Positions 4,450 to 51,390 of a DNA stretch of 64,000 nt are shown one piece after another. Position numbers and translations under genes: made by a program. Position 1 is the first letter of the stretch, and the number at the start of each line of letters is the position of its first letter. The stretch is from Acidimicrobiales bacterium (GTDB lineage Bacteria > Actinomycetota > Acidimicrobiia > Acidimicrobiales > GCA-2861595), in contig JAUJNQ010000001.1 in the NCBI GenBank assembly GCA_030448025.1, forward strand, positions 474,970 through 538,969. Direction: 5' to 3'. The notes beneath the pieces are model-generated. The model saw only the letters and a list, made by a program, of their open reading frames with translations. It was not told the DNA's origin and did not search any database.

Positions 4450-4452
4450 CTT

Positions 4453-11593: not shown

Positions 11594-14500
11594 TCAGGGC
11601 TGGCGCCCGGTGGCGGGCCAGGGAGCTCCGTCGCCCTCGGTGGCCAGCACCGTGTCGGACCAGACGGACTTGCCGACGTCGGTGACGTGGAGCGCCCTCG
11701 CCGGTGTCGGGTCCGGGGGGAGGAGGTCGAGGATCGGGTCGGCCCGGGGGACGGTGGACTTGACGCCCCCGAACACGAGCCCGGCTCCGGTCTCCACGAG
11801 GATGTCCTTGGCAGAGACCGCGTCGTTCAGGGGATTCCTGTCCAAGCGCTCGGAGAGCGTCTCGGTGAGAACGCCGTTGGAGAACGCGCCGGCCGTCGAG
11901 CCGACGACCTCGGGAATGGCGGCGGCGTAGGGAGAAGTGGCCACCGCCCCCCCGGTCTTCGCCGCGGTGAGCGCCGCATTGCCGACGCCCGAGGAGACGC
12001 CACCCACGACGCCGGCGAAGGCCACGTTCCGGGCGTCGATCGGCCCACCCCTCATCACTTGGACGCTGAGGTTGGAACCCGCTCCGATGAGGACGCCCGC
12101 ACCGACCCCGGCACCAAAGCCGGTGGCAACCATCGCAACGCCGGCGCCGACGACGGCGACTGCGGCGATGACCTCCCAGTGATCCCCGACCCAGCCGGCC
12201 ATGCCTCGCATGGGGGCGGTGACCACCTCGGCCAAGGTTGGATGTGACGCCTTCCAGGCGTCCCATTCTCCGTCGCTGAGGGGCTGCAACCCGAGCGGGT
12301 CGACCCACCCCACAGGGTCGTGGTGGCAGTAGTGGTACGGGTTTGCCACCGTGGTGAGCCCGGGCACGCCGGCCACCGGATCGGGTGAGAGGAACGAGCG
12401 GGTCTCGGGGTCGTAGGCGCGATGGCGGAGCCAGAGCAGCCCGTCGAGCGTCCACTCGCCGCGGAAGCCGGGCTCAGGGCCGGCGCCGGGGTGGCCCGCT
12501 CGCCCCCAAGGGTCGGCAACGGCGCCGATGGGCGAGCCGTCCCAGTCCCTGCTGAGCCACCGGGCTTGGCCGTCGGCCACGACCGCCCATGGCTCGCCGG
12601 CGCCGACAACGCTGCGATCACCGATCCGGCGGAGCTGGGCCACGTTGGCGACCGTGTCCCACCCAAGTGCCTCGCCGTTCAGGCCCACCAGCTCGCCGAG
12701 GGCATTGACGTTGAGCTCGGCGGCGTCCACACCGGCCAGGCGGCCGAACGGATCCCAGCGGTAGCGGCGGGAGCACCCACCACCGGACTCGGCGAGGCGG
12801 CGTCCGGCTCCGTCGTAGGACAGCTCGGTCAGCGAGCCGTGGCGCTCCACGGTGACCAGCCGGTGGCTGGCGTCGTACCCGTAGCGCACGGAGCCCGCCG
12901 GTCCCTCTTCGCCCGCCAGGCGGCCCGCTGCGTCGTAGCGCCAAGTAGTGGCGTCCGCCGCCGCCAGCCGCCCGGCGACGTCGTAGCCGTAGCGGGTCAC
13001 GTTCTGGCCGCGACGGACCTCGATGACCCGCCCGGCCTCGTCGCGCCCGAGCTCGACACGGTGCAGACCGTCCTGGTAGCCCACCAACCGGTGATGCCGC
13101 CAGGCCCAGGACCGCTCCACCCCCGGCGCTCGCAGCGCCACCAGGCGCCCGACGGCATCCCTCGTCAGCTCGATGCGCCCCCCGACGGGATGGGTCAGGG
13201 TGGTCAACCGACCCGCAGCGTCGTGCTCGTAGAGCTCCTCGGTGCCGTCGGGATGGACAAGGACGCTCGGGCGCCCGTCGGCGTCGTAGCGCCAGCGCAA
13301 GGTCCCCGCCGGTCCGTGGCGAGCGGTGAGCCGGCCGGCGGCGTCGCGCTCGAAGCGGTGGTCGCCGGTGTGGTCGACCACCCGTGCGATGCGTCCCAGA
13401 GCATCACGCTCGAAGCTCGCCTGAGTGCCGCCCGCAACCAGGCTCACGAGGGCCGAGGTCCGGTCGAAGCGCAGCTCGTAGCTGCGTCCGTCCGGCTCGA
13501 CGAGCAAGCGGGGGCGACCGGCCTGGTCGTGGTGAAGCCGGGTGACCCGCCCGAGGGCGTCGATGCTGGCCGTGATGCGACCCATCGGGTCGTGCCGGTA
13601 GCGGACGGTGCCCCCGCCGGCGTCGGTTGTCGAGGACAGCAGGCCCCTGACGCCATAGTGGTAGCGGGTGACGCCACCGGCAGCGTCGATGGCCTCGACG
13701 AGCAGACCCCTGCTGTCGTAGCGACGCCGACGGCGACACCCCGTGGCATCGGTTACGTCCACCAGACGCCCCAGCGCGTCGTAGCCGAGCCGCTCGGTTC
13801 CGCCGTCGGGGTGGTGCCGCTCGACGATGCGGCCGCAGGGGTCCCGCAGCAGGCGTGTGACCTCGCCGTCGGGGTGCACGACACCGGTGACCCAGCCGTT
13901 GCAATCGCGGCCGTAGCGAGTGACCGCACCGGTGGGATCGGTGTGGCCCACCACCCGCCCTGCGGCGTCGTAGTGCCACTCGGTGGCGTTCCCGAGGGGA
14001 CTCACCACACGACGGAGCCGGCCGGCAGGCGTGTACTCGTAGCCAGTGGTGTTCCCGCCGGCGTCGGTGACCGACGTGGGGCGGCCGCAACGGTCGCGCT
14101 CGACGACCTCGGTGCCGCCGTCGGGCAGGGTCCGGCGGACGACCCGCCCGCCGTGATCGTAGGCAGTGATCACTTGACGTCCTTCGGCATCGACGGTCCG
14201 CACCACGTTGCCGCGCTGGTCATGGTCGACTCGCCTGGTGTGCCCGAGGGCGTCCGTCGCCCCCACCACCCGACCGTTGGCATCGTGCTCGTAGTGGGTG
14301 GAGCCCCCGGCGGGATCGTGCAGCGCGGTGAGCCTCGAGAGCTCGTCGTAGGTGAGCTCGAACTTCGCCCCGTCGGCGGCAACGATTTGGGCCACGTTGC
14401 CGAGGATGTCGGTCTCGGTGGTGGTGACGGCGCCGAGCGGGTCGACGAAGGCCTGTAGGTCGCCGGCGTGGTCGTGGCGCCACTCGAAGCGGGAGCCGTC

Positions 14501-16321
14501 CGGGGTGGTGCCGCCGGTGGGCCGCCCCGCAGGTGACCACGTCTTCTCCCAGACGGCACCATCGGCGTCGGTGTGCCGGACCAGGCGTCCCGCCTCGTCG
14601 TGCTCGAAGCGCTGCCTCTGGCCCCCCGGGAGCCGGATGGCGGTGATGCGGCCCCCTCGGTCTCGTTCGAGCAGACAGGTGTGGCCCAGCCCGTCAATGA
14701 TCCTCACCGGGAAGCCTTCGGCGTCATGCTCGAAGCCGACCGTCACTCCGTCGGCGTCGGTGATGCGCCGGACGAGATCGCCGTCGGCCTCGACGACGGT
14801 GGCGGCGCCTTCGGGATCGGTGATGCGGCTGGGGAGGACGTCGGCGTGGGAGCCGTAGCCGAGGGTGACGGGGCCGGCGCCGGCGCCGGCGACCTTGGTG
14901 GAGGTGAGACGCCCTTGCTCGTCGTAGGTGTAGAGCTCCTCGGCGCCTCCGGGCAGGACCCGGCGAAGGAGCCGTCCCTCCGGACCGAACTCCTGCGAGG
15001 TGGCGGCGCCGGTGCGGTCGCGGACCGACGTCAGGTTGCCGGACGGGTCGAAGCGGCGGGTGAGCCGACCGCCGTGGTCGTCGACGGCGCCCGTGAGCCG
15101 TCCCCCAGCGTCGTGGAACATGACGACCTTGGGGCCGCCCTCACCGTCGCGAGCCGTGGTAACGGGGCCGGGCCGGTAGTCGTAGGTCGTGTGCAGCCCT
15201 CTGGACGACCGCTGTTCGACGACGCGGCCATCGACGTCATAGGCGTTGCGGGCCAGTTCAACTCCGTCGGCGTCCACCACGGCCAACACCCGCCCCTGCT
15301 CGTCCAGCTCGTAGGTCCGCCGGCCGGCGGGCGCGTCGGAGGCGACCAGGTCCCCGTCGGCGTAGGTGTAGGTGACCGTGCCGTAGGCGCAACCCCGGCC
15401 GTCCGAGGTTCGCACGGCGGTGATTCGCTTGCCCGCCCACTCGAGGTCGAGGCGCCGGCCGGCGTCGTGGGCCATGGCCCGGAGACGACCCTGCTCGTCA
15501 TGGTGGAAGCGAACGCAGCCGGCCGGCCCGAGCACGACCTCCGTCGGCCTTCCGTCGGGGCCGAACCGCCAGCGCTCGCCCCGCCACCAGCGCAGCTCGG
15601 CGCCGGCTTCGCTCTGGACGACCTCGGCCGCGAGGTTCCGGTCGAGCGAGAAGCCGTGCTCGGTACGGGACAGCTCGACCACCTGGCCGTCCGGGCCTTG
15701 GAAACGGGCGCCCCCGGCGGTCAGATGGAGGCGGGTGGTTGCCCATGAGGACCAACCTCGCCCGAGCGGGCCCGGGTGGGGAAAGCGGCTGTTGTGGTTG
15801 CGCATCCAGGTCATCGCCCAGAGTCGAGCAGGCGCAGGCAGGTCGACCTCGGGTTGGACGAAGCTGCCCGTCCCGCAGTTCACGGGGTCGTCCTTGAACC
15901 CCGAGTCCACGGTGAGCCCGGCGGCGGAGGGAGCCTCGACGCTGGTCAGCGCTGGAGCCCGGATGGGCACTCCGGCGGCGGCCAGGCGAGCGTCTATGAC
16001 GGCATCGGCGACGAAGCTGAGCGCCCCACCCGAGCCGGCCTCCCGGAAGGCCCCTGACACGACCTGTGTCCAGTCGGCCTCCACATCCCGGTCAGCGCGG
16101 TGGGCTCGGGCCGACTCGATGGTGTCGCCCAAGTGCTCGAGCCGGGGAGCTGACGCGCCGGACTGAGACGGCGAGGCGATGCCCACGTCGCTGGGCTCGG
16201 CAAGGAACGCCTGGAAGGCGTTCTCGAGCGCAGCGACCCGAGGTGCCAGGTCGGCGTTGAGGTCGCGACTGGTGGAGACGAAATCGTCGAGGGCATCGGG
16301 ATCAGCCGAGCTCGTAGCCAT
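11594..16321 (-). CDS. RHS/YD-repeat protein (1575 aa) with a helical N-terminal domain and a C-terminal glycine-zipper domain
   Basis: ATG at 16321 lies 10 nt after GGAGGA. Dozens of YD repeats (..GRxxxxxDxxGxxxxYxYDxxGRL..). RHS core end YDPETRSFLSPDPVAG...NPYHYCHHDPVGWVDPLGL. A 230-aa tail follows. No signal peptide, PAAR or SpvB/TcdB region is recognisable. Confidence 0.9.
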   Translation of the reverse strand: MATSSADPDALDDFVSTSRDLNADLAPRVAALENAFQAFLAEPSDVGIASPSQSGASAPRLEHLGDTIESARAHRADRDVEADWTQVVSGAFREAGSGGALSFVADAVIDARLAAAGVPIRAPALTSVEAPSAAGLTVDSGFKDDPVNCGTGSFVQPEVDLPAPARLWAMTWMRNHNSRFPHPGPLGRGWSSWATTRLHLTAGGARFQGPDGQVVELSRTEHGFSLDRNLAAEVVQSEAGAELRWWRGERWRFGPDGRPTEVVLGPAGCVRFHHDEQGRLRAMAHDAGRRLDLEWAGKRITAVRTSDGRGCAYGTVTYTYADGDLVASDAPAGRRTYELDEQGRVLAVVDADGVELARNAYDVDGRVVEQRSSRGLHTTYDYRPGPVTTARDGEGGPKVVMFHDAGGRLTGAVDDHGGRLTRRFDPSGNLTSVRDRTGAATSQEFGPEGRLLRRVLPGGAEELYTYDEQGRLTSTKVAGAGAGPVTLGYGSHADVLPSRITDPEGAATVVEADGDLVRRITDADGVTVGFEHDAEGFPVRIIDGLGHTCLLERDRGGRITAIRLPGGQRQRFEHDEAGRLVRHTDADGAVWEKTWSPAGRPTGGTTPDGSRFEWRHDHAGDLQAFVDPLGAVTTTETDILGNVAQIVAADGAKFELTYDELSRLTALHDPAGGSTHYEHDANGRVVGATDALGHTRRVDHDQRGNVVRTVDAEGRQVITAYDHGGRVVRRTLPDGGTEVVERDRCGRPTSVTDAGGNTTGYEYTPAGRLRRVVSPLGNATEWHYDAAGRVVGHTDPTGAVTRYGRDCNGWVTGVVHPDGEVTRLLRDPCGRIVERHHPDGGTERLGYDALGRLVDVTDATGCRRRRRYDSRGLLVEAIDAAGGVTRYHYGVRGLLSSTTDAGGGTVRYRHDPMGRITASIDALGRVTRLHHDQAGRPRLLVEPDGRSYELRFDRTSALVSLVAGGTQASFERDALGRIARVVDHTGDHRFERDAAGRLTARHGPAGTLRWRYDADGRPSVLVHPDGTEELYEHDAAGRLTTLTHPVGGRIELTRDAVGRLVALRAPGVERSWAWRHHRLVGYQDGLHRVELGRDEAGRVIEVRRGQNVTRYGYDVAGRLAAADATTWRYDAAGRLAGEEGPAGSVRYGYDASHRLVTVERHGSLTELSYDGAGRRLAESGGGCSRRYRWDPFGRLAGVDAAELNVNALGELVGLNGEALGWDTVANVAQLRRIGDRSVVGAGEPWAVVADGQARWLSRDWDGSPIGAVADPWGRAGHPGAGPEPGFRGEWTLDGLLWLRHRAYDPETRSFLSPDPVAGVPGLTTVANPYHYCHHDPVGWVDPLGLQPLSDGEWDAWKASHPTLAEVVTAPMRGMAGWVGDHWEVIAAVAVVGAGVAMVATGFGAGVGAGVLIGAGSNLSVQVMRGGPIDARNVAFAGVVGGVSSGVGNAALTAAKTGGAVATSPYAAAIPEVVGSTAGAFSNGVLTETLSERLDRNPLNDAVSAKDILVETGAGLVFGGVKSTVPRADPILDLLPPDPTPARALHVTDVGKSVWSDTVLATEGDGAPWPATGRQP

Positions 16322-16383
16322 GCTTTTGGGATCCTCCGGGCTGGGGCTGCGACCAGTGTGGTGTGGGTACGCGGTGAGCGGGA

Positions 16384-16749
16384 CTAGCCCACGATGCCTT
16401 CGAGGAAGCCTTTGAGGCCCCACCAGCTGCGGTCGTCTTCCTCCTGGCGGGCCTCTACCCGGGCGGCCTGCTCCTCCCCAGCCCACTGTTCTGCGGCCGT
16501 CAGTGCCGCCCGCATGGCGTGGAGTCGGCCGATCAGGCCCTCGGCGTTCTCGTTGTTGGTGGCGAACCGCAGGGTGAACTCGTTCGACTTGTTCCCCCAG
16601 AACTGTTCCTGAGCCCGGCTGCCTACCCGGCGGCGGCTGGAGGACTGGCCATCCAGCAGGTCGGCAAGGCTGGCACAGGCGGCGGCGAGGGCCTGGGCCT
16701 GGGCAGCGGGCCAGCGAACGTCCTCCTGGATGGCCTGCGGCGTTCCCAT
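16384..16749 (-). CDS. Helical 121-aa protein, WXG100-like with a degenerate W-G motif (candidate secretion partner/adaptor)
   Basis: Lies 11 nt downstream of the WXG100 stop and 62 nt upstream of the RHS start. Has Ala/Leu-rich helices flanking EQFWGNKSNEF. Acidic C-terminus. Confidence 0.6.
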   Translation of the reverse strand: MGTPQAIQEDVRWPAAQAQALAAACASLADLLDGQSSSRRRVGSRAQEQFWGNKSNEFTLRFATNNENAEGLIGRLHAMRAALTAAEQWAGEEQAARVEARQEEDDRSWWGLKGFLEGIVG

Positions 16750-16762
16750 CGCAGACGCCCGG

Positions 16763-17038
16763 TCACGAACCGGCGGCCATGATGTCGCCGAGGATCGTGT
16801 CGATGGTGGTCTGGAGCTCGTCCAGCTTGGCCTTTGCCGTCTGCAGGGCCGTGTGGGTGGAGGGCCAGAGGTCGGAGCGGAACTGGATGGCCTTGGGGCC
16901 GTCCCAGTTGTTGGGCTCCGAGAGGAACTGGCCGCAGCCGTCCATCTGGACGATGAGGCCCTCGAGCTGGCCCGTGACCAGGCCCTTGAACTCTGCGACC
17001 TTGGACTTGGCCTCGTCGGTTGCGAGGGTACGGGCCAT
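16763..17038 (-). CDS. WXG100 (ESAT-6-like) family protein, 91 aa
   Basis: ATG at 17038 lies 6 nt after AAAGGAG. Reads MARTLATDEAKSKVAEFKGLVTGQLEGL...EPNNWDGPKAIQF (W-x-G)...LQTAKAKLDELQTTIDTIL. Helix-turn-helix hairpin size. Confidence 0.8.
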   Translation of the reverse strand: MARTLATDEAKSKVAEFKGLVTGQLEGLIVQMDGCGQFLSEPNNWDGPKAIQFRSDLWPSTHTALQTAKAKLDELQTTIDTILGDIMAAGS

Positions 17039-17115
17039 GCGTGGCTCCTTTCGAGCGTCTCTCTGGGGGCGGGGCCACCTTAAGGGCGCCTCAGGCACTT
17101 TACAAGTATTTCATG

Positions 17116-20100
17116 TCATCGTGTACCGATCGAAACCAGAGCCACCTGCAGAACGTCCAGCTCCCCGTCGTGCACGAGGTAGGCGCGTCCCGGTCCCAAG
17201 GCCAGCGCCTGGCGGCGAGGGAGCCTCACGCCGAACAGCTCTCCGTCCAGGTCGGGATCGGGCTGGAACAACAGCCCCGCCCGCGAGCGGCGAACATCCC
17301 TTGTCCAATGGCCGTAGGCGCTGCGGAGCGCGTCGGCCCGGCCCGCCACCACGATGTGGAGATCGCTCCGGCGCATCCCGAGCAGCCGGGCGAACGCACC
17401 GCTGTGGTCATCGATCAGGTCGGCGTCGTCCACGAGGACGAGGTTGGGCCGGTCAGACGTATCCACCACTTCGGCCAGCATGGCCAGTGAGGCGGCATCG
17501 CAGAAGGTGTCATCGAGGTGGGCGCATCCGCGCAGCGGCGACCGCCGGAGGGCCACGCCGGAGATCCGCACGTCAGGGTTGGAGCGGGCGGCGGCGGCGA
17601 GGACGAGCAGCGCGTTGCTCCGCCCGGACCGCGGGGGACCGGCCACCGTCGCATGCTCGCCGTCGTGGAGCGGCAGCCCCGCCGGGGCGAGTGTGGAGTC
17701 GGCGACTCCAAGGCCGAGAACCCAGGGCCGCCCGCCGAGCCGAGTGGCTGTGGTGACCTCGTCGACGCTCACCTCCGCTGGCAGGGAGCCGACCGTGGCC
17801 GGGGGACGAATCGGGACAGGGGCCGAAGCCGCCACTGCGGCAACTGCGGCAGCGAGATCACGACCGGCCCACCCCACCTGCACCACCTGGCCGGTTCCAG
17901 CCATCACCGCTCGCCCGGCTGTGGGACGAGGCAGCTGGTGGGGACGCAGCCCGAATGCTGCCCCGTCAGCCGGGTTGGCCAGCCGGAAGACCCACCGCTG
18001 CTCCACGAGCGACAGCAGCTGGTGGGGGAGGGCCCCGATCCGGTCGGCGGACACGGCGGTGTTGATCCCCACGCTCGGGCCATCGGCCCACACCCTGGCG
18101 AAGTCCTCGTAGACACCGAAGCCGCGGGCCTCGCCGTGTTCCACCAGGAAGGCGGCAATGCCGTCCACGAGCAGCGTCAGCAGCGGCTGTGAACCACGTT
18201 CCTCGGACCGGAGAGAACGCCGGCGGTTGAGCTCGGCGCGGAGGTGGCGGACCAGGCGCATCTGGCGTTCCGGTTGGGAGGCCGTAACGACGCTCCCGAC
18301 GTGCGGGAGCCCGACCAGAGGCCCGAGGTCACCCGCTCCCAGGTCCAGGACGTGAACGTGGCAGTCGTCAGGCGTGGTGGAGGCGGCCAGGGCGAGGGCG
18401 ATGCCGGCCAGCGCCGTAGTGGTGCCGCTCCCGGGGATCCCGAACAGGGCCAGGTTGCCCGCCAAGTCCCAGCCCGTGGGGAACTGGGTCTGGGCGTCCG
18501 GATCGTCGGCCATGGCGAAGCGGAGCAGCGCCGGGCGCCCCGGGCGGCGCCCGTCCGCCACCTCCGCCAGGTCGATCGACGGAGCGAGCGGATCAGGCCA
18601 GGGTCTCCGCTGCGGGGCGAGCCCCCGCTCGCCGGCAGCCCGCGCCACGGCGTCGACCAGGCGGGTGAGATCGCTGGACCGTGAATCCTCGGCCGTCACC
18701 CCACCGGACACAGGGTGGTCCGAGCAACGTGGGTGCAGCACGAAGGGCTCGACCTCGACGGGGAGCCGCTCCTCTTCGGCGCTGTCACCAGTGACCAGTG
18801 CCGCCTGGAAGGCCAGCACCTCGTCGGCGCCCAGCCTCACCAGGGCTCGACCGGGTTGAGCCCGAGGGATGCCGGCGGCATCGGTCACACCGATGACGTC
18901 TGCCGAGTCGGCGGGATCCTGCACCCGGAGCGAGATGCGCACGTTGGTATTGGCCTTGATGGTCGGGCTCACCGCGCCCGAGGGGCGCTGGGTGGCGAGC
19001 ACGAGGTGGACACCGAGGCTCCGGCCCCGCTGGGCGATCCCCACTAGGGCGTCGACGAAGCCGGGCAGCTCGGTGGCCAGGGTGGCGAACTCGTCGATGA
19101 CCACCACGAGCCGGGGCAGTGGCGCCAAGCCGGCTTCGGCCGCTCGACTCGTGTAGTCGGACAGGTCGCTCGCCTGGGCCCCCCTGAGCACCCGCTCCCG
19201 ATGGCGCAGCTCGGCCTCGAGGCAGCGCAGGGCCCGCTCGCCGAGCTGCTCGTCCAGATCGGTGACGAAGCCGACGGTGTGGGGCAGCCGCGAGCACGCC
19301 TCGAAGGCGCTCCCGCCCTTGTAGTCGACCAGGACGAACGTGAGGTGCTCTGGGCTTACCGAGGCTGCCAGGCCCGCCACCAGGCTGCGGAGGAGCTCGC
19401 TCTTCCCCGATCCGGTGGTACCAGCCACCACCCCGTGAGGCCCGTCCCTCACGAGGTCGAGCTCGAAGATGCCGTCCTCACCCAACCCGAGGGGCGTGGC
19501 CGGTCGGGGCCGAGCTCCACCGGCGTACCACCGGCGTACCACGTCGCCGGTCGTGGGGCGCCCCATGCCCAGCAACGGGAGGAGGGCGACGGCGGGAGGA
19601 AGGCCCGCACCGGCCGTGGGTGTCTCCGGATCGTCGAGGCGGGCCAGGCCGCGGGCGACCTGGCGGGCCAGCGGCTCGCTGAGGCCTGCGGCCGACACGT
19701 TCTTCAGCGTCTCTCGCCGCGCCGGGCGATGGACCTCCGTGTCGTGGCCGTCCTCCCCGACGCGCAACACCGTGGTGCACATCGCCGGCAGACGGCGCTC
19801 TTCCCCGGCGATCACGATCCCTGCCACCGGGCCGGCGGCGCCCCGCAGAACCGATCGGGCGAGCGAGGCGCGCCCGGCCACCTGGGACTCGTCGTCGATC
19901 ACGACGAGGCGCACTGGTCCCTTCGGTTCGCGGCCTACCACGGGGCGTGTGGTGACTGGCCCGCTCGGTGCTCCCGGCCGCGCCGCAGCCAGCAGCTCGT
20001 CGAGCATCGCCCTGGACCCGCCCGGGTCGGCGCCCACCCGGTGAGCCCGTGCCCGCTCGGCGTCCCGCAGGTGCGGCGCCCACTTGAGCCAGTCCCAGTC

Positions 20101-21405
20101 GACCACCGCCCCGGAGGAGATCAGCGCCACCGTGGGCAGGTCGGCCGGCCCGTGGTGCACGAGCGCCTGGCAGATCAGGCTCCGTGCCACTGCCAGGGCG
20201 ACCGGCCGGTTCCCGACGATGCCCGCCACGCCCCCCTCGGCGAGATCGACGTCGATGGGCACACCGGGCAGCGTCGACCGGCTCTCCAACAGTTCGACGA
20301 CCTCGCCGGGCGGGACGCCGACGCCGCCCCGCAACGGGGCGCGCCAGGCAAGGTCGCCGACGCCCACCCCGAGCAGGAGGAAGTCGGCATCGCCCGGGCG
20401 TCGCTCCCAAAGTCGCACGCTCGGCATCAGGGCCCGGCGCACCACCTCGCTCAGGTCGGGGACCAGTTGGCGGAGCCGGTGCGACTCCGCGCCGCGAGCC
20501 GCATCCAGAGCTCGCTCGAACGAGTCGAGATCCCGGGCATAGGCCTTGGACCGGTTCCGCCCTTCCCGGCCCGAACGAACCTTGCCGTCGATCCAGTTGC
20601 CGAGCACCATCACGGGGGTCAAGAGCATGAACAGCGCGTAGGTGATGCTGCGTAGGGCCACCACCATGATCAGTCCGAGCACGAGGGGAGCGATCAGGGC
20701 GACGACATTGAACGGTGGGGAGGTGCGGACCTCCGGCAGCGACGGCGCGCACAGCTCGCCCTCGAGCGGCGGCGGGGGCGCGGCCCGGGGTGGGCGGTTG
20801 AAGGCGATGGTGCCCGTCTGGCGCCCATGGCGCAACGGGTCGATGCCCGGCTGGCGGTCGTCGTCGGGTGGCGGTCCCACACTGCAGGCGACCGATCCGA
20901 TCCACATGGTCATGCCGGGAGGTACCGGGGTCGGCTCGCTCACGGGGCAGTCGCCGACCGCGGTGCCGTTCATGGATCCGAGGTCGCTGACCCCGCAGTC
21001 GCCGAGGGGCGACACTGTGAGCCGGCAGTGTCCCTTCCGGGAGACGGACCGGTCGCCGAGCACCACGTCGGAGCGGGGGTGGCGACCCACGACCGAGTCG
21101 CCCGGCAGTAGTGGTTCCCGACGGCCCGCTTCGATGCCGGAGAGCACGTGGAGCTCGGCCGCGGCCGGATGCTGCGGTGCCTCCTCGATGCCTCCGTGAA
21201 GACGCACGACGGCCCCGTCCACCAGCCCGCTCTCCGCCAGCCCCACGTCAGCGCCCACCATCCGGCCGTCGATGACCAGAGCGGTGCCCGGCGGGAGGTC
21301 CGGGTCGAGAGTAGAGGCCAGGTCCCCCACGGTGGCGTCGTGGCAGTTGACCCGAACCTCGGCCTCCCAGCTCCACGACCTACCGGCCTGTACGAACATC
21401 CTCAT
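17116..21405 (-). CDS. FHA-domain FtsK/SpoIIIE-family triple ATPase (EssC/EccC-like type VII secretion motor)
   Basis: FHA region VVGRHPRSDVVLGDRSVSRKGHCRL...LGSMNGTAV. Two TM helices (FNVVALIAPLVLGLIMVVAL / YALFMLLTPVMVLGNWI). Three P-loops (GTTGSGKSELL, GIPGSGTTTAL, GPPRSGRSNAL). The start is uncertain (21405 or 21471). Confidence 0.85.
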   Translation of the reverse strand: MRMFVQAGRSWSWEAEVRVNCHDATVGDLASTLDPDLPPGTALVIDGRMVGADVGLAESGLVDGAVVRLHGGIEEAPQHPAAAELHVLSGIEAGRREPLLPGDSVVGRHPRSDVVLGDRSVSRKGHCRLTVSPLGDCGVSDLGSMNGTAVGDCPVSEPTPVPPGMTMWIGSVACSVGPPPDDDRQPGIDPLRHGRQTGTIAFNRPPRAAPPPPLEGELCAPSLPEVRTSPPFNVVALIAPLVLGLIMVVALRSITYALFMLLTPVMVLGNWIDGKVRSGREGRNRSKAYARDLDSFERALDAARGAESHRLRQLVPDLSEVVRRALMPSVRLWERRPGDADFLLLGVGVGDLAWRAPLRGGVGVPPGEVVELLESRSTLPGVPIDVDLAEGGVAGIVGNRPVALAVARSLICQALVHHGPADLPTVALISSGAVVDWDWLKWAPHLRDAERARAHRVGADPGGSRAMLDELLAAARPGAPSGPVTTRPVVGREPKGPVRLVVIDDESQVAGRASLARSVLRGAAGPVAGIVIAGEERRLPAMCTTVLRVGEDGHDTEVHRPARRETLKNVSAAGLSEPLARQVARGLARLDDPETPTAGAGLPPAVALLPLLGMGRPTTGDVVRRWYAGGARPRPATPLGLGEDGIFELDLVRDGPHGVVAGTTGSGKSELLRSLVAGLAASVSPEHLTFVLVDYKGGSAFEACSRLPHTVGFVTDLDEQLGERALRCLEAELRHRERVLRGAQASDLSDYTSRAAEAGLAPLPRLVVVIDEFATLATELPGFVDALVGIAQRGRSLGVHLVLATQRPSGAVSPTIKANTNVRISLRVQDPADSADVIGVTDAAGIPRAQPGRALVRLGADEVLAFQAALVTGDSAEEERLPVEVEPFVLHPRCSDHPVSGGVTAEDSRSSDLTRLVDAVARAAGERGLAPQRRPWPDPLAPSIDLAEVADGRRPGRPALLRFAMADDPDAQTQFPTGWDLAGNLALFGIPGSGTTTALAGIALALAASTTPDDCHVHVLDLGAGDLGPLVGLPHVGSVVTASQPERQMRLVRHLRAELNRRRSLRSEERGSQPLLTLLVDGIAAFLVEHGEARGFGVYEDFARVWADGPSVGINTAVSADRIGALPHQLLSLVEQRWVFRLANPADGAAFGLRPHQLPRPTAGRAVMAGTGQVVQVGWAGRDLAAAVAAVAASAPVPIRPPATVGSLPAEVSVDEVTTATRLGGRPWVLGLGVADSTLAPAGLPLHDGEHATVAGPPRSGRSNALLVLAAAARSNPDVRISGVALRRSPLRGCAHLDDTFCDAASLAMLAEVVDTSDRPNLVLVDDADLIDDHSGAFARLLGMRRSDLHIVVAGRADALRSAYGHWTRDVRRSRAGLLFQPDPDLDGELFGVRLPRRQALALGPGRAYLVHDGELDVLQVALVSIGTR

Positions 21406-21558
21406 GTGACCGAACCCCGCGCCGTCATGCATGGTTGAGGAAGAGGTGATTGAAAACGCATCAAGATACACGAGGTTACTCGACGCGCACCGAGCCGGGC
21501 GGCGGCGAACGCTACGCTTTGCTGTCGCCTGGCGTTCACCTTCCCCGTCACCGCTGCT

Positions 21559-22560: not shown

Positions 22561-24303
22561 ATGACCGAAGTCGAGGCCGGTGACGGCGCGAGGGACTGTC
22601 CCGAGCGGCCCCGGAACAGAACCCTCGAGGAGCTCGGCTTCGTGTTCAAGCCCATGGTGCGCTGGCTCGATCCCCGCCAGCTCCTCGACACCTCGGCGCG
22701 GGTGGTGCTCTCGGGCATCTTCGGCACCTATGCCGACAAGCGGGAGCTCCAGGCGCTGATGCCCACCGAGATCTACGACCGGTCGGACCACGAGGAGCTG
22801 TGGCTCGACTACGTCGCCGACCTCGGTGACGGGTGGGACCCGACCTACAGCATCGCCAGCCTGCTCGCCGCTCCGACGCTGGAGGTCGCCTCGGACGAGA
22901 GGACGTACGACACGCAGCGGGGCCGGATCCTGGTCATGGGCGGGGACGCGGTCTACCCCGTCCCGAAGCGCGCCGACTACGAGAACCGCATGTTGGGGCC
23001 GTACCGGGCCGCGCTGCCATGCACCCACCATCGCCACCCCGAGTTGTTCGCTGTTCCCGGGAGCCACGACTGGTACGACGGGCTCGTCAACTTCACCAGC
23101 GTGTTCTGCCGGCAGTACTGGATCGGCGGGTGGAAGACACGCCAGAACCGGAGCCATTTCGCGCTCAAGCTGCCCCACGGATGGTGGCTGTGGGGCGTGG
23201 ACATCCAATTCGGCGACTACATCGACGAGGCGCAGATTCGGTACTTCACCGAGGTGGCGGAGAAGCACGTCGCCAGGGGGGACCGCATCATCTTGTGCAC
23301 GGCACGGGCGCCCGGCACCGGCGGGAGCCAGCCCCACCTTTACGCCGAGCGCAACCTCCAGTACTTCCAGCGCGAGATCGTGGCCCCGTCGGGTGCGGTG
23401 CTGGTTCTCCAGGTGACGAGTGGTCGCCACCACTACGCCCATTACCGGGAGCCTGACGGCCCGCGGCATCACGTAAACGGCGGCGGCGGCGGCGCCTTCC
23501 TCCATCCCACCCATCACCTTCCCGACCACCTCGAGCTGGAGACCGGTGAGGGCCCTCCCCTCAGCTACGAGCAGGTGGCCACCTACCCCTCCGTGGCGTC
23601 TTCACGCCGCCTCCGGAAGAGGTTGTTGCTGCTGCCGCTGCGCAACCCGGCCTTCGCTGCCTTCCTCGGCTCGGTGCAGGTGTTCCTGGCGCTGATGCTG
23701 GGTCTGCACCGCGACGCCGCCAACGAGTCGCTCGGAATGGCGGACCTGTGGGAGGCGCTCTGGACGAGCCCGACGGCTGTCCTGCTCGTCCTCTTCATGG
23801 TGGTCATCCTCGGGGCCATGGTTCGCTTCGCCCACGACGCCCCGGGCCTGACCCGTGTCCTGCTCGGCGCGGCGCACTCGGCGCTCCAGTTGGCGTCACT
23901 CGCCGGGCTGATGATCGCTTCGTCCAGTCTCACGGCAGCACTCGGCGTGCACGGGATCGTCTCCGTCATCGCCTTCCTGGGATTCCTCGCCGTGCTGGGC
24001 GGACTGGGCGGAGCGCTCGGCTTCGCCGCCTATCTCTGGGTCACGAACTGCCTGGGCTTTCACGCCAACGAGGCGTACGCGCCGCTTCGGGTCAAGGACT
24101 TCAAGCACTTCGTGCGCATGCGCATCGACCACAACGGGACGCTCACCGTGTTCCCCATCGGTGTCGACAAGGTGAGCCGCCGCTGGGAGCTGTGCACCGA
24201 GGGGCCTGCCCATGCTCCGTGGTTCCGACCGGAGCGAGGAGAGCTCGACGCCAAGCTCGTCGAGCGCCCCTTCGAGGTCGGTGCTGAGTTCAGGTTCAGG
24301 TGA
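22561..24303 (+). CDS. Calcineurin-like metallophosphoesterase with a C-terminal multi-TM region
   Basis: ADLGDGWD, MGGDAVYP and VPGSHDWYDG motifs. Hydrophobic segments in the last ~200 aa. Confidence 0.7.
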   Translation: MTEVEAGDGARDCPERPRNRTLEELGFVFKPMVRWLDPRQLLDTSARVVLSGIFGTYADKRELQALMPTEIYDRSDHEELWLDYVADLGDGWDPTYSIASLLAAPTLEVASDERTYDTQRGRILVMGGDAVYPVPKRADYENRMLGPYRAALPCTHHRHPELFAVPGSHDWYDGLVNFTSVFCRQYWIGGWKTRQNRSHFALKLPHGWWLWGVDIQFGDYIDEAQIRYFTEVAEKHVARGDRIILCTARAPGTGGSQPHLYAERNLQYFQREIVAPSGAVLVLQVTSGRHHYAHYREPDGPRHHVNGGGGGAFLHPTHHLPDHLELETGEGPPLSYEQVATYPSVASSRRLRKRLLLLPLRNPAFAAFLGSVQVFLALMLGLHRDAANESLGMADLWEALWTSPTAVLLVLFMVVILGAMVRFAHDAPGLTRVLLGAAHSALQLASLAGLMIASSSLTAALGVHGIVSVIAFLGFLAVLGGLGGALGFAAYLWVTNCLGFHANEAYAPLRVKDFKHFVRMRIDHNGTLTVFPIGVDKVSRRWELCTEGPAHAPWFRPERGELDAKLVERPFEVGAEFRFR

Positions 24304-24586
24304 CCGAGCGGTAAGCGAAGTCGGCCACCACGAGGCCCACCACCATGGCCGTCAGCGAGCAGACCATGGCTGTCCTGCCGAGGGAGTCGCCCTTCCGATG
24401 CCCGATGTACCCCAGCACGGCACCGATGACCCCGTGCAGCGGCGGGTAGACGAGGATGGCCAGCACAGCCAAGATGAAGCTGCCCACCGTGTAGCCCCGC
24501 CCTTCCAAGTGGCTGCTGCCGCCGGCGTGCACTGGCTCCGTCGAAGTGCCTGTGTTCGTCGTGCCTGTGTTCGAAGTGTCGGTCAC
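24296..24586 (-). CDS. DUF4190-like small membrane protein (96 aa)
   Basis: GTG at 24586 overlaps the upstream stop (GTGA). Thr-rich N-terminus, then two TM helices (GSFILAVLAILVYPPLHGVIGAVLGYIG and AMVCSLTAMVVGLVVADFA). Confidence 0.6.
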   Translation of the reverse strand: MTDTSNTGTTNTGTSTEPVHAGGSSHLEGRGYTVGSFILAVLAILVYPPLHGVIGAVLGYIGHRKGDSLGRTAMVCSLTAMVVGLVVADFAYRSVT

Positions 24587-25437
24587 GCGGGGTTCTCCGA
24601 TGGTCGATGGCGGATCCGGGAGCCGAGCGTCCGCCGAGCCTCGGCCACCCGGCGGTCCTTCTTGCGTTCCCACCAGAAGGCGGCGCCGAAGATCGCCAAG
24701 GCCGCCGTGAGGAGCAGCGGTGCCAGCAACCGAGGAGAGGCGCCGACGTACTCCTCCTCCTGATTGATCGGCACCGGACCGGTGAAGACAGGCCCGAGCG
24801 CCCCGGCGCCCACCGGCGCCAGTGTCTCGCCGGGAAGAGAACGATGGAGCACCCGGACCAGAGGCCCCGGGAAGACTTGGGGGGAGCGGCGGCGAGGGGT
24901 GGTCCTGCGTGCACGCACCCCCGGGCGGGGTCGCAGCTTGGCCGGACCCGGACCCGGTGTGGCATTCTCGGAGCCAGGCAGGGCCGCGGCCCCACCGGGA
25001 GGGTTCGGCCCCGCCTGGCCCGCCTGGCCCGCCGGCGGCTGCGCTTGGGTGCCGGCCCGGCATTCGGCCGTCGCTTGCTTTGGGGCGCCGACCGGAGGGG
25101 CCGCGGTGGTTGTCGGGATCCCGGGTTGTTTCGAGGACTCACCGGCGACCTGTGGACACGTCGTGGACGTGGTGGTGGTCTTCCCCGGCGCCCTGGTGGT
25201 GGACGTGGTGGTGGTCTTCCCCGGCGCCCTGGTGGTGCTCGTGGTGGTCGACGACGTGGAGGTTGGAGAGGTCGTGGTGGACGACGACGGTGTGGAGGAG
25301 GGTGGTGCACCGCCGCCTTGAGCCGCGGCCGGGGCGAAGGCGGCGGTCTCGGCGGCTGCGGCCAGGAGCCCGGCGGCGAGGAGGGCCAGGAGGCGGCCGG
25401 TCACTGGCCGGCCCCGCTGGAAGGGCGTCATCGCCAT
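24583..25437 (-). CDS. Secreted Ser/Thr/Pro-rich protein with a signal peptide and a C-terminal membrane anchor
   Basis: N-terminus RLLALLAAGLLAAAAETAAFAPAAAQ. TTSTTRAPGKTT tandem repeat. C-terminal LLAPLLLTAALAIFGAAFWWERKKDRR. Confidence 0.65.
   Translation of the reverse strand: MAMTPFQRGRPVTGRLLALLAAGLLAAAAETAAFAPAAAQGGGAPPSSTPSSSTTTSPTSTSSTTTSTTRAPGKTTTTSTTRAPGKTTTTSTTCPQVAGESSKQPGIPTTTAAPPVGAPKQATAECRAGTQAQPPAGQAGQAGPNPPGGAAALPGSENATPGPGPAKLRPRPGVRARRTTPRRRSPQVFPGPLVRVLHRSLPGETLAPVGAGALGPVFTGPVPINQEEEYVGASPRLLAPLLLTAALAIFGAAFWWERKKDRRVAEARRTLGSRIRHRPSENPA
25165..25236. repeat. Perfect 36-bp tandem duplication inside the Ser/Thr-rich gene
   Basis: ggacgtggtggtggtcttccccggcgccctggtggt occurs twice, at 25165-25200 and 25201-25236. 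Confidence 0.9.
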
Positions 25438-26212: not shown

Positions 26213-27418
26213 TCAGGCACAGGAACCCCCGAGGGACGAGGCCAGCAGGAGCTGCCCCATCGCCACCCAGGCCGCCCCGTAGTAGGTGGGGGATCCCCGG
26301 TCGAGATCCTCGGCCTGGGACAGCAGCACGTCCCGGGCACGGTAATCGCCGGCAGCGTGGGCCGCGGCCGCGGCCCCGACGGCCTTGGCCGGGTGGGGAG
26401 AGCTCTGGATCGGACGTCCCTGCAGATCCGACGACATCGCCGTGCCCATGCCGGGCGCCGCCGCCAGCGCCGGCCAGCTGGTTGCCGCCACCCGCTCCCA
26501 CGCTGTTCCGCACGGGGCCAGCCGTGGTAGGAGGCGCGTGGCATCGAGGCCGTAACGGGGACCCTCGGCCTCCCCGTCCGGAGCCGGGACGGGCTCGAGG
26601 GCACCGGTGGGGCCGAGGCGCGACCAGTCCGGGGGGAGGGGCCGATCGGGAAGGACCAGTCGTTCGAGCAGCCGCCGGCTGGTGTGGGCCATGGCCGGCC
26701 AGCGGGGATCGTCCGTCTCCTGCGCCATGGTGGCCACCGCACCGGGGGAGAGGTAGCTGGGGTTGACCATCCTCGGTTCACGAGCCCATGGTCCGGCAGC
26801 CAGCACTATTCCGTCGCCGGCACGGCCCTCGCGGGCAGGGGCCTCGCCGGCGGCGTCGTCGACCCGGATGGTCTCGTGCTCCAGAACGGCGGCCGCCATG
26901 CGGAGCCCCTCGGCACGAAGGCTGTCGTCGTCGAACCGGGTCGCGGCGAGGACGAGCGCCCAGGCTGCGTCCAGGTCGGCATCGGCGGCGGGCATGGGGT
27001 CCTGGACCCGTCCGTCGGCCCACCGCCAGGCCAAGAGAGCATCCGGGCGCTGAAGATTTAGTCGGGCCCACTCCCAAGCCAGGTCGAAGCGACGGCGGTC
27101 ACCTACGGCCTGGGCCAGGAGCATGGCGTAGGCCTGTCCCTCGCTCACGCTGTCCCCACCCTGGTCACGCCTGACGACTCTGCCGTCACGGTCGAGGTAG
27201 CGGTCGAGGAAGCGGTGGGCGGCGGCGCGCCCGGCGTGGTCGACGCCCTCGGCGTTGCCGGGAGCCGACCGGTGACCGACGAGGAAGGAGCTGCCGAGCG
27301 CCACCGCTGCGGTGGAGCTCACGAGGACGACGATGACGGTGAAGCCCGGACGGCGAGCGTCATCGCCGGAGCGGACGGCGCGCCCGGTACTCGGCGATCT
27401 TGATCTGTGGGGCCTCAT
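26213..27418 (-). CDS. Glycoside hydrolase family 8 (endo-beta-glucanase, BcsZ-like), membrane-anchored
   Basis: ATG at 27418 overlaps the upstream stop (ATGA). TM segment FTVIVVLVSSTAAVALGSSFLV. SEGQAYAMLLA and AADADLDAAWALVLAATRF blocks. Confidence 0.75.
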   Translation of the reverse strand: MRPHRSRSPSTGRAVRSGDDARRPGFTVIVVLVSSTAAVALGSSFLVGHRSAPGNAEGVDHAGRAAAHRFLDRYLDRDGRVVRRDQGGDSVSEGQAYAMLLAQAVGDRRRFDLAWEWARLNLQRPDALLAWRWADGRVQDPMPAADADLDAAWALVLAATRFDDDSLRAEGLRMAAAVLEHETIRVDDAAGEAPAREGRAGDGIVLAAGPWAREPRMVNPSYLSPGAVATMAQETDDPRWPAMAHTSRRLLERLVLPDRPLPPDWSRLGPTGALEPVPAPDGEAEGPRYGLDATRLLPRLAPCGTAWERVAATSWPALAAAPGMGTAMSSDLQGRPIQSSPHPAKAVGAAAAAHAAGDYRARDVLLSQAEDLDRGSPTYYGAAWVAMGQLLLASSLGGSCA

Positions 27419-29190
27419 GGCACCGGCGCTCCGGCGGCGTCGGGTATCGGCGGCCCCGGCCTGGCCACCCTGCGCACCTCGACGCGGTCTGCGCCGCTCC
27501 CGAAGGCAGCGACGGTCCGGGAGTTGTCGAGGGCCTTGCGCACCTCGCCGAGGCCTGTGGGCAGGTCGGCCAGGCCGCCCTGGATCACCGGGGTGGCGAC
27601 CACGTAGTCGAAGTGGCGCCATCCGTCCGGGAGCCGTTCGGCCACGGACGGGTCGAGGTTGGCCGAGAAGTCGAGCTTGTGGAACCACACCACTCCGAGG
27701 TCCCTGCTGAAGCCGCGCTCCACCAGGTCCACCCACATCGTGTCGTCCACGAGCAGGCGGCTGTCGCGCGACACGTTGGCGTCGATCCAGCGGGTGGCCT
27801 GGGCAACCGGCGCACCGGTCGTGGCGGTCATGAGGCGTCGGTCACCTAGGGCCCATTGGGGGGCCACGAAGACACCGGCCAGGACCACGGTGACGAGCAC
27901 CGCGGCGCGACGGACGGTCAGGTCGACGAGGTGGCGGCGGAGCGGCGGCGGCTGCGCTGCGGGCGTCGACGGCAGGCTCAGCACCGCCCGGCGCCTGGCC
28001 TCGAGGGCCGGGTGCTCCCGAGGCGCCATTCGCCGAGGGGGGAGCCACAGGGCATTGCCCAGACCGGCTACCAAGAGGGCGGCGAAGGGCAGGAAACCGA
28101 TGACCAACGGCCCCGGCAGGTAGCCTTCGCGCATCACCATGAGGGCGGGGATCCCGAGGGCCAGAGCCATTGGGCGCAGACTTCGGAACCACAGGGATGG
28201 CACGAGCGCGACCAGGCCGGCCCCGAGCAGCCAGGGATCGAGGTCGAGCCACGTCGACACGATCCGGTGGGCCGGCTGGGTGGCATCCAGAACGCTCCCG
28301 CTGGACGGGCGGGTGAAGAGCTGGAACCGGATCGCCTCGAACAGGCTCACGTGGTCACCGCCCGGCAGCAACTCCCCCTTGAGGAGTGCGGCCAGGGGGT
28401 AGGCGACGGCGGTGAGCACCAGGCTGCTGGCGAAGGCGGTGAGGCAGAACCGCCGGGTCCGGCGGTCGCACCTGGACCAGAGCTGGGCCACTACGGCGGG
28501 GAGGAGCAACAGGGTGGTCTCCTTGGTCATCAGTGCCGCCGCGAAGCAGGCGCCCCCACCTGCGTAGGCCCACAGCTTCGAAGTGGGTGACGACACCAGG
28601 ACCAGGGCGGCCAGGACCCAGGGGATGGCCAGGTTGTCGAGCAGCACCATGCGGTGGTAGCTGAGCCCGAGGGGGGTGAGAGCGAAGAGCAGCACCGCGG
28701 CCGCGGCCGCCACCCGATGTAGGCCGATGCGGCGTCCGAGCAGGTAGAGAAGGGCGCAGCTGGCGAGCTGGACGAGGAGCATCAGCTCTCGGCCTTCGGC
28801 CACGGCCCCCACACCCCCGTCAAAGGCGCGGGTGACCCACGTCCAAGCGGCGATCGCCAGCCATCCCAGAGGAGGATGGTCGTACCAGTAGGTGTAGTGG
28901 GCTAGCTGGCCCGTTCGCTGCACGGCCCACGCCTGGGCCATGTACGTGCCCTCGTCGTCGGACGGTCCAGGCGACGTGGCCATCCCCCAGGCGTGGACCA
29001 CACCGACCACCACCAGCAACCCGGCGAGGAGCAGGAGGCTCGAGCGGTGGGACGACGCCCAGGCGCCCAGCCGGCTGCGCAGCGTCGGACCGGACGGCAA
29101 CGACGCCTCGATGGTCGCCAGGTTCGGGAGCTCGTGACGGGCACCGGGCGGTCGGGGCGCCAGGCGGGGCAGCTCGAGGTCGGTGATCAC
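27415..29190 (-). CDS. GT-C fold membrane glycosyltransferase (GT39/ArnT-like)
   Basis: GTG at 29190 overlaps the GT2 stop (GTGA). First-loop motif SDDEGTYMAQAWAV..YTYWYDHPPLGW. More than 8 predicted TM helices, then a soluble C-terminal domain. Confidence 0.7.
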   Translation of the reverse strand: MITDLELPRLAPRPPGARHELPNLATIEASLPSGPTLRSRLGAWASSHRSSLLLLAGLLVVVGVVHAWGMATSPGPSDDEGTYMAQAWAVQRTGQLAHYTYWYDHPPLGWLAIAAWTWVTRAFDGGVGAVAEGRELMLLVQLASCALLYLLGRRIGLHRVAAAAAVLLFALTPLGLSYHRMVLLDNLAIPWVLAALVLVSSPTSKLWAYAGGGACFAAALMTKETTLLLLPAVVAQLWSRCDRRTRRFCLTAFASSLVLTAVAYPLAALLKGELLPGGDHVSLFEAIRFQLFTRPSSGSVLDATQPAHRIVSTWLDLDPWLLGAGLVALVPSLWFRSLRPMALALGIPALMVMREGYLPGPLVIGFLPFAALLVAGLGNALWLPPRRMAPREHPALEARRRAVLSLPSTPAAQPPPLRRHLVDLTVRRAAVLVTVVLAGVFVAPQWALGDRRLMTATTGAPVAQATRWIDANVSRDSRLLVDDTMWVDLVERGFSRDLGVVWFHKLDFSANLDPSVAERLPDGWRHFDYVVATPVIQGGLADLPTGLGEVRKALDNSRTVAAFGSGADRVEVRRVARPGPPIPDAAGAPVP

Positions 29191-51377: not shown

Positions 51378-51390
51378 GTACGAAACACCA

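Follow-up and report, generated by a model that had tools for sequence, protein, structure and literature searches.

A 64-kb stretch of an Acidimicrobiales genome (contig JAUJNQ010000001.1, positions 474,970 to 538,969; hereafter the window, to which component searches and neighbour calls were confined) carries a block of four genes, all on the minus strand, encoding an ATPase with an FHA domain (17116..21432), a 91-residue protein of the WXG100 family (16763..17038), a 121-residue WXG-like protein (16384..16749), and a 1575-residue RHS/YD-repeat protein (11594..16321). The GC content of the third codon positions of these open reading frames (ORFs; GC3 0.85-0.93 versus GC2 0.45-0.55, in a genome of ~70% GC) indicates that they are real coding genes, and their short spacing of 77, 13, and 62 nt makes a single operon plausible, confirming the co-directional arrangement described in an initial annotation made from the sequence alone. 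The flanks are also as stated there: a glycerate kinase gene is convergent with the RHS gene, the two gene ends lying 4 nt apart, and on the other side the ATPase gene and an alpha/beta hydrolase gene diverge. Five related assemblies are syntenic for the block, all four genes are under purifying selection as measured by the ratio of nonsynonymous to synonymous substitution rates (dN/dS) among syntenic orthologues, and close homologues of the encoded proteins come from metagenome-assembled genomes (MAGs) labelled Acidimicrobiales or Actinomycetota. Homology and gene linkage support the proposal of the initial annotation that these genes encode the ATPase and WXG100 protein of a type VII secretion system (T7SS) with the RHS protein as its likely cargo, and we consider the block to be, probably, a T7SS locus in reduced form, of the type with an FHA-bearing ATPase that is present in Actinomycetota (T7SSd-like).

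The 1438-residue ATPase consists, in order, of a ubiquitin-like domain, an FHA domain, two transmembrane (TM) helices, a domain-of-unknown-function (DUF) region, and three FtsK-like P-loop domains. Its start at 21432 is that of the NCBI gene call, and an alternative start at 21405 is also possible. Pfam recognises an FHA domain (residues 127-192) and FtsK_SpoIIIE, and comparison with solved structures places the protein in the EccC/EssC family: its best matches there are EccC of T. curvata (2e-80), YukB of B. subtilis (2e-62), and EccC5 (7e-60), with FtsK far below these (3e-18), and residues 219-492 align with the TM and DUF part of EccC3. Because the matches to EccC and YukB so exceed that to FtsK, and because the TM and DUF region aligns with EccC3, the ATPase is, on homology, a divergent member of the T7SS motor family and no DNA translocase. 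NCBIfam scores it at 475 bits against EssC (TIGR03928, cut-off 778), 379 against EccCa (cut-off 509), and 260 against EccCb (cut-off 347); by these profiles it represents a divergent subfamily that is the equivalog of neither EssC nor EccC. Full-length homologues of 45-50% identity number in the hundreds across Actinomycetota; many of those found come from Acidimicrobiales, Iamia, Actinoplanes, Pseudonocardiaceae, Solirubrobacteraceae, and some MAGs of Chloroflexota type.

The three P-loops lie at residues 671, 998, and 1265. Only the first is a canonical Walker A motif (GTTGSGKS, 19399..19422); the second (GIPGSGTT, 18418-18441) and third (GPPRSGRS, 17617-17640) have no Walker lysine, a pattern that is invariant across 20 homologues. 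The two predicted TM helices (residues ~241-281, 20590..20712) appear as one hydrophobic stretch in hydropathy analysis and were separated by inspection. The three P-loops, the TM helices, and the FHA domain had all been noted in the initial annotation and hold by Pfam, motif position, and hydropathy; the loss of the Walker lysine from the second and third P-loops qualifies that description, and the ubiquitin fold at the N-terminus had been missed. Residues 1-221, modelled with AlphaFold2 from 25 homologues (mean predicted local distance difference test score, pLDDT, 86.8), show a beta-grasp unit at residues 9-78 (21199..21408) followed by an FHA sandwich at residues 92-186 (20875..21159). In a Foldseek search of the PDB with a separate model of residues 1-86 (pLDDT 83.3), ubiquitin, NEDD8, and ISG15 were the top matches listed (probability 1.0, template modelling scores 0.52-0.71). 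Matches at the sequence level are weak (SAMP2, ubiquitin, and YukD, E 0.003-0.09), so that the assignment depends on the predicted structure, in which the head of the ATPase is a ubiquitin fold fused in cis to a single FHA domain.

The FHA domain itself, identified by Pfam and by the model, has the FHA domains of GarA, OdhI, and MDC1 as its Foldseek relatives and retains the GR, S, H, and NG residues used in phosphothreonine binding. Its S-x-x-H loop (near residues 131-135) carries a one-residue insertion, reading SRKGH where relatives have SRRH (loop alignment A4). This insertion is confined to the sublineage without a nearby kinase, and the next-closest homologue has glutamine in place of the histidine; one may speculate that the insertion would fit altered or lost phosphothreonine control. 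The label 'EssC-like' given to the ATPase in the initial annotation is apt for the presence of an FHA domain only, as the protein has one such domain next to a ubiquitin-like domain rather than the FHA domains of EssC (PMC11217815) and is about equally close to EccC.

The identification of the 91-residue protein as an EsxA/TsxA-like WXG100 protein is borne out by tests at the level of its family. A hidden Markov model (HMM) of the family built without the protein recovers it at 1.3e-8, 21 of the 24 aligned members match Pfam WXG100 (PF06013), and the family profile matches EsxA/EsxB structures at ~1e-11. The conserved columns are W45, G47, F53, and W58, the first two belonging to the W45-D-G47 motif, and the gene is the most constrained of the block (dN/dS 0.06-0.12). 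Homologues adjoin the ATPase gene or head the RHS operon in many loci, and by its sequence relationships the protein belongs to the WXG100 family and accompanies this ATPase family from locus to locus. Some NCBI MAG records, such as MBA2751643.1, give the name 'pyrophosphorylase' to close homologues from its 90%-identity cluster, probably a mis-annotation.

The RHS protein carries, as judged from alignments of its relatives, a two-part N-terminal module whose first half, a putative WXG-like hairpin, is here encoded separately as the 121-residue protein. The second half is a domain of the RHS protein itself (residues 1-138, 15908..16321, alignment A3) that begins MATSSADPDALDDF and that we refer to as the 'TSSARP' domain. 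A single-sequence search with the N-terminal 143 residues of the RHS protein returned one match and an exhaustive search eight; the family became visible once the N-termini of RHS proteins from loci selected by their ATPases were aligned, revealing a pattern ('TSSARPxxLxxF ... W ... AF..AGG') common to RHS proteins beside related ATPases. An HMM of this domain matches every complete RHS protein near these ATPases except for the different protein of locus L057 (surveyed loci are designated by L numbers). A WXG- or LXG-like label for the domain was dropped, as comparison with WXG100 and Pfam gave no relationship.

The ~20 close homologues of the 121-residue protein are all ~121 residues long. 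An hhalign comparison of this family with the WXG100 profile (72% probability, E 3.5e-5) places its FxG on WxG, and one relative matches WXG100_2 at 2.6e-4; the WXG-like character assigned to the protein in the initial annotation thus has moderate support from profile similarity. Fusion of a domain resembling the 121-residue protein ahead of the 'TSSARP' domain is seen in RHS proteins of Rothia (L028), Arthrobacter (L019), Paeniglutamicibacter (L023), and Microlunatus (L014, two proteins). This lineage, Actinoplanes (L012), an Acidimicrobiaceae MAG (L013), and L094 encode the domain as a gene of its own next to the RHS gene; it lies immediately upstream in all but L094, in which the two genes diverge. 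For the RHS cargo examined, the domain is always either fused to the RHS protein or encoded next to it. This pattern of fusion and fission is the strongest evidence that the 121-residue protein works with the RHS N-terminus, and it counts against a role in immunity. An immunity function for the protein was considered and rejected, its domain being fused to the RHS N-terminus in many relatives and its gene lying upstream, not downstream, of the RHS gene.

Two other loci contain proteins of ~690-825 residues (family F57) that are not RHS proteins and start 'MGTSSANP...' (L009 20881-23358, L010 15297-17357), and ORFs resembling the 121-residue protein precede them (L009 22926-23318, L010 17373-18218). 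Their presence ahead of the 'TSSANP' proteins suggests that the split targeting module also serves other, non-RHS cargo.

The remainder of the RHS protein is a repeat shell, a core, and a C-terminal region. Pfam and NCBIfam identify RHS_repeat (2.6e-120, 24 stretches), DUF6531 (3.9e-15, residues 145-216), and the Rhs core TIGR03696 (Rhs_assc_core, 8.6e-15, residues 1270-1345), which ends in the motif DPLGL (residues 1341-1345, 12287..12301), the probable autoproteolytic cleavage site by analogy with other Rhs proteins. The N-terminus is hydrophilic (maximum Kyte-Doolittle hydropathy 0.72), which speaks against a signal peptide, and no PAAR, VgrG, or SpvB domain is among the Pfam and NCBIfam matches at E<=0.1, in agreement with the initial annotation. 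Thus no feature of delivery by the type VI secretion system (PAAR or VgrG binding), by Tc toxins (SpvB/TcdB), or by the Sec pathway (a signal peptide) was found on the RHS N-terminus in these searches. In the five syntenic orthologues the 4.7-kb ORF is uninterrupted and purifying selection acts on it, with dN/dS values of 0.26-0.31 for the shell, 0.12-0.17 for the core, 0.26-0.38 for a glycine-rich module that follows the core, and 0.46-2.2 for the last 45 residues, indicating that the gene is maintained and its extreme tail is not.

The C-terminal region (residues 1346-1575, 230 residues, 11597..12286) has no Pfam match, and a scan against Pfam for PT-TG or any other toxin family was negative. 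Residues ~1346-1455 form the glycine/alanine-rich hydrophobic, glycine-zipper-like module (AVVGAGVAMVATGFGAGVGAGVLIGAG, Kyte-Doolittle hydropathy up to 2.3); the ~120 residues after it contain no known domain, and the last 45 of these are nearly unconstrained. Over ~110 residues the module is 37-43% identical to the pre-toxin part of two related RHS proteins, P0148 and that of L092. In P0148/L094 it is followed by a TreTu_C toxin and then by a TriTu-like gene, and in L092 by a ~110-residue domain without assignment and then by a 114-residue ORF. These relatives display the arrangement of polymorphic toxins, a variable C-terminal toxin with a downstream immunity gene, which is not found here: in each of the five orthologous loci a convergent gene begins 4 nt beyond the end of the RHS gene, and the C-termini of the five are orthologous (45-70% identity), not swapped or polymorphic. 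Glycine-zipper C-terminal domains are membrane toxins in other systems, namely Tse5-CT of a Pseudomonas Rhs protein and the LXG protein TelE of S. gallolyticus. The module resembles those domains (10.64898/2026.03.12.711312) in composition: its Gly/Ala-rich hydrophobic segment includes a string of small residues and follows immediately on the Rhs cleavage site. It differs from them in that they have dedicated membrane immunity proteins, whereas the module here is a pre-toxin linker in relatives. The payload may thus be either the hydrophobic glycine-rich module itself, or a toxin may have been lost and the protein taken on another role; a membrane-active effector would still need an explanation for the absent immunity gene.

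The genomic context of the ATPase family was surveyed in 80 GTDB loci fetched by ATPase homology, in which genes were called and clustered and which were placed in tiers by ATPase bit score against the window protein. Tier 1 (>1000 bits) has 10 members, the present locus among them. Nine of the ten have a WXG100 gene (NCBI gene calls being counted for L006 and L007), six (L009-L013, L015) have a gene for a TM Ser/Thr kinase no more than 10 kb from the ATPase, and none has F10 or F11, two families characteristic of more distant relatives. An HMM of the ubiquitin-like domain places it at the N-terminal end of every tier-1 ATPase and of most of those in tier 2. Within tier 2, a Micrococcales-type group (Microlunatus, Arthrobacter, Rothia, Winkia, Alloscardovia, and others) has a conserved set consisting of WXG100 (where called), F10 (~950 residues), F11 (~440 residues), the ATPase, and in most cases the kinase, often flanked by RHS genes. 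F10 and F11, which have N-terminal TM or signal segments, lie upstream of the ATPase in L014, L016-L019, L023, L025, L028, and L083. Four tier-2 loci of Acidimicrobiia (L021, L029-L031) consist essentially of WXG100 and ATPase, and two (L020, L022) have this pair plus extra WXG-like or substrate-like genes. In Iamia (L007) the ATPase and WXG100 genes stand amid housekeeping genes, and L093 has a lone ATPase. The L020 pair, of actinobacterial type and with an ATPase of 42% identity, is on a contig (CAXMQV010000142.1) of a MAG labelled 'uncultured Gammaproteobacteria bacterium' and may reflect mis-binning or horizontal transfer.

RHS proteins with the N-terminal module are linked to the ATPase, WXG100, kinase, or F10/F11 genes in six of the loci chosen by their ATPases (L012, L013, L014, L019, L023, L028). 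An independent sample was obtained by scanning metagenome contigs with the RHS N-domain (alignment A7), which yielded 23 loci; the search pattern was derived from the fused Micrococcales-type subfamily, so that the sample is biased towards the fused form. In all 23 the domain related to the 121-residue protein is fused to the N-domain, and 22 encode RHS proteins. A WXG100 gene lies directly upstream in 16 of the 23, and T7SS machine genes (ATPase, kinase, F10, or F11) are present in nine, among them six of the 11 loci of at least 15 kb. The linkage that the initial annotation had put forward as a check on its proposal is therefore found in many genomes, where homologues of the RHS N-domain and of the 121-residue protein are tied to the ATPases, WXG100 proteins, and machine genes.

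Other gene associations were seen among these loci. Tad-pilus genes (those for a CpaF-like ATPase, TadZ-like, TadB, TadE, and CpaB proteins, and a LysM protein, all named by sequence features) adjoin EccC/EssC-family ATPases in L009 (16580-20829), L034, L035, L042, L043, L049, L050, L063, L075, and L081, an adjacency in Actinomycetota that echoes the one reported for T7SSg and T7SSh of Bacillota (PMC11217815). Near EccC-family ATPases (L055, L062, L076, L082, L088, and L057) are Streptomyces-type proteins of ~400-600 residues, members of cluster F3 that have no RHS repeats, with a helical N-terminus ('MxRPxxDW...DPxPGDP') and glycine-rich, multi-TM C-termini. These features give them the appearance of a distinct family of putative T7SS substrates with membrane activity.

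Further secretion components were sought in the window. No EccB, EccD, EccE, MycP, EsaA, EssA, EssB, or Hanks kinase was found in a Pfam scan of 40 window ORFs or in an HMM scan of ORFs of at least 40 residues, upholding what the initial annotation had reported for the known membrane components near the block, and HMMs of the kinase (F2), F10, and F11 had no match anywhere in the 64 kb. Beyond the block, the Pfam scan returned housekeeping and regulatory genes only. Judged by description, none of the 40 ORFs is like TsdH (small, with a single TM segment) or TsdI (large, with a Sec signal, immunoglobulin-like domains, and a C-terminal TM segment). A 580-residue protein (22561-24303) and two small TM proteins (24296-24813) were considered as extra machine parts; the former has no Pfam match, and synteny of all three is limited to the close lineage.

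Elsewhere in the window, a pair of neighbouring genes for tyrosine recombinases of the phage integrase family and a fragment of an IS110-type transposase (1234-3344 and 4390-5004) lie ~7-10 kb past the RHS end of the block and may mark a mobile-element boundary. A cellulose-like exopolysaccharide cluster (26216-30479), made up of genes for a glycosyl hydrolase of family 8, a membrane glycosyltransferase (PMT_2), and a GT2 synthase, shares synteny with the T7SS block in the related assemblies of L006 and L090, and a DUF222 and HNH endonuclease gene (51241-52638) is of a type often repeated in actinobacterial genomes.

RHS repeats have been described among the repeat types of those T7SS-delivered toxins of Firmicutes, Actinobacteria, and Chloroflexi that bear a WXG, LXG, or LDXD domain for trafficking, and YueA-like ATPases were noted in toxin gene neighbourhoods (Zhang et al. 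2012, PMC3482391); an EssC variant of Listeria has been linked to an Rhs toxin (Bowran et al. 2023, PMC10327511). More recently, Garrett, Higginson and Palmer (2024, PMC11217815) defined T7SSc-j. Of these, T7SSd is actinobacterial and comprises TsdA, TsdC with its FHA domain, TsdD, which is a kinase, TsdH, and TsdI; the T7SSd locus of Olsenella (O. uli) includes an Rhs protein, small WXG100-like partner genes accompany substrates, and a ubiquitin-like protein is reported to be absent. The general arrangement is thus already published, its actinobacterial examples being known from comparative genomics and not characterised experimentally, and the remark in the initial annotation that the combination had not been characterised was too strong. 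What sets the present block apart is that only an ATPase and a WXG100 protein are seen, both in this window and in several related Acidimicrobiia loci, that a ubiquitin-like domain is fused in cis, that the RHS targeting module is defined in two, sometimes split, parts, and that the RHS C-terminus has neither an immunity gene nor polymorphism.

The block matches the TsdC-type (FHA ATPase) and TsdA-type (WXG100) features of T7SSd, and it shares with that system an actinobacterial host, an N-terminal FHA domain with its phosphothreonine residues largely kept, a single WXG100 gene, the lack of a free-standing EsaB/YukD gene, and an Rhs protein with a putative small WXG100-like partner; the nearest ATPase relatives, too, usually adjoin a TM Ser/Thr kinase, TsdD being the counterpart in T7SSd. 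Unlike T7SSd, it has no kinase, TsdH-like, or TsdI-like gene in the 64 kb, no immunity gene, and a host of Acidimicrobiales type rather than Olsenella or Bifidobacterium, and its ATPase is fused to a ubiquitin fold, which PMC11217815 does not report for TsdC, a comparison made by description. With T7SSb it has in common an FHA domain on the motor, an EsxA-like WXG100 protein, and a ubiquitin-like element beside the FHA domain; in T7SSb the FHA domains of YukB/EssC are stabilised by YukD, a free ubiquitin-like protein (PMC12637312). A toxin whose helical N-terminal region is completed by small partners (Lap/LXG) would be a further analogy, helicity being presumed here. It departs from T7SSb in having one FHA domain and a fused ubiquitin-like domain instead of the N-terminal FHA domains of EssC and a free YukD, no EssA, EssB, or EsaA in the window, no LXG domain, and an EssC score below the cut-off; and from T7SSa (ESX) in having no EccB, EccD, EccE, or MycP among the 40 ORFs scanned. 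The RHS protein resembles the T7SS-linked RHS toxins of PMC3482391 and PMC10327511 in its shell, its putative WXG-like N-terminal trafficking region, its lack of a Sec signal, and the adjacent YueA/EssC-type ATPase, and it differs from them in that the WXG-like region is a separate gene and that the C-terminus is non-polymorphic among orthologues, with no recognisable toxin domain or immunity gene. By analogy with YukD, the cis-fused ubiquitin domain would be a simple explanation for the ubiquitin-like protein reported absent in T7SSd.

These comparisons suggest how the products of the block might act. The 121-residue protein would bind the 'TSSARP' domain of the RHS protein and rebuild a helical targeting signal, as Lap partners do for LXG toxins, and the WXG100 protein would be a general EsxA-like co-substrate or activator. 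A hexamer of the ATPase, whose TM helices may line a channel, would export the complex. The RHS shell would enclose the C-terminal ~230 residues until their release by cleavage at DPLGL, and the freed hydrophobic glycine-rich module could then insert into a target membrane.

Several observations weigh against reading the block as a T7SS locus with an RHS cargo. The 91-residue protein taken alone has no Pfam match, the ATPase falls under the NCBIfam equivalog cut-offs for EssC, EccCa, and EccCb, and the link of the 121-residue protein to WXG100 is just moderate. The 'TSSARP' domain has no Pfam match or similarity to WXG100 and is unlike any known T7SS signal domain. Within the window neither a known membrane partner of T7SSs nor a kinase was found, and to our knowledge no T7SS has been shown to work with an ATPase and a WXG100 protein alone. 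Export of the RHS protein is argued from homology and gene linkage only, and a folded RHS cage of ~170 kDa would have to pass the T7SS channel. Finally, neither a recognisable toxin domain nor an immunity gene is present, which is atypical for an antibacterial RHS toxin.

One alternative concerns the identity of the motor. The Pfam domain name FtsK_SpoIIIE, the label 'DNA segregation ATPase' that public records give to homologues, and the occurrence of some homologues on their own (L008, L093) would fit a DNA translocase acting in division, sporulation, or conjugation, its adjacency to the RHS gene being coincidental. We regard this as highly improbable, since the three P-loop domains and the TM and DUF region align with EccC/YukB (2e-80 versus 3e-18 for FtsK), a WXG100 gene is near the ATPase in nine of the ten tier-1 loci, RHS cargo with WXG-like N-domains recurs beside the family in several genera and in different gene orders, and no DNA recognition module like the gamma domain was seen. 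The role of the RHS gene is a separate matter. It might be a disarmed remnant that has lost toxin and immunity and serves a structural, adhesive, or other non-toxic function, and the toxin and immunity gene that follow the same glycine-rich module in relatives and not in this lineage, the near-neutral last 45 residues (dN/dS 0.46-2.2), and the absence of polymorphism among the five orthologues all point that way. We nevertheless think a remnant rather unlikely, because the 4.7-kb ORF is intact in five diverged assemblies, constraint is kept on the shell (dN/dS ~0.26), the core (0.12-0.17), and the glycine-rich module (~0.3), the partner genes are conserved too, and glycine-zipper C-termini such as those of Tse5 and TelE act as membrane toxins elsewhere.

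The remaining alternative bears on the minimal status of the locus alone and is compatible with a reduced T7SS locus with RHS cargo. The system may be an ordinary multi-component T7SS, with the genes for its other parts (the kinase, membrane- or wall-spanning proteins, and possibly a complete ESX or T7SSd set) at another place in the genome, so that the locus merely looks minimal; we give this somewhat less than an even chance. The kinase within 10 kb of the ATPase in six of ten tier-1 loci, the two further conserved genes, F10 and F11, of the Micrococcales-type relatives, and the retention of the phosphothreonine-binding GR, S, H, and NG residues favour it, and the component search spanned 64 kb of a longer contig. 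Set against these are the lack of any match to the kinase, F10, or F11 in the window, the recurrence of ATPase and WXG100 pairs or a lone ATPase amid housekeeping genes (Iamia L007, L093, and Acidimicrobiia L021, L029-L031), the restriction of the S-x-x-H loop insertion to the kinase-less sublineage, and a ubiquitin-like component already provided in cis. The boldest proposal compatible with the locus is that a two-protein T7SS, formed by an ATPase with a TM channel and cis ubiquitin and FHA domains and by one WXG100 protein, suffices in Acidimicrobiia and some other Actinomycetota to export an RHS cage of ~170 kDa through a split WXG-like/'TSSARP' module, the cis ubiquitin domain explaining the gap in T7SSd. 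This proposal is weak because it rests on negative evidence from partial genomes, and we consider it doubtful.

If other parts of the apparatus have their genes at another site, the locus adds just a further case to a class already published and is of little consequence. The fused ubiquitin/FHA head is a testable explanation for the 'missing' EsaB/YukD of actinobacterial FHA-type T7SSs, and the split and fused forms of the 121-residue domain pinpoint two pieces that would have to bind to form the targeting signal of this RHS family. Should the ATPase and the WXG100 protein prove to be enough, the system would be the simplest T7SS known and would offer a tractable means of addressing the identity of the T7SS channel and the passage of a folded RHS cage.

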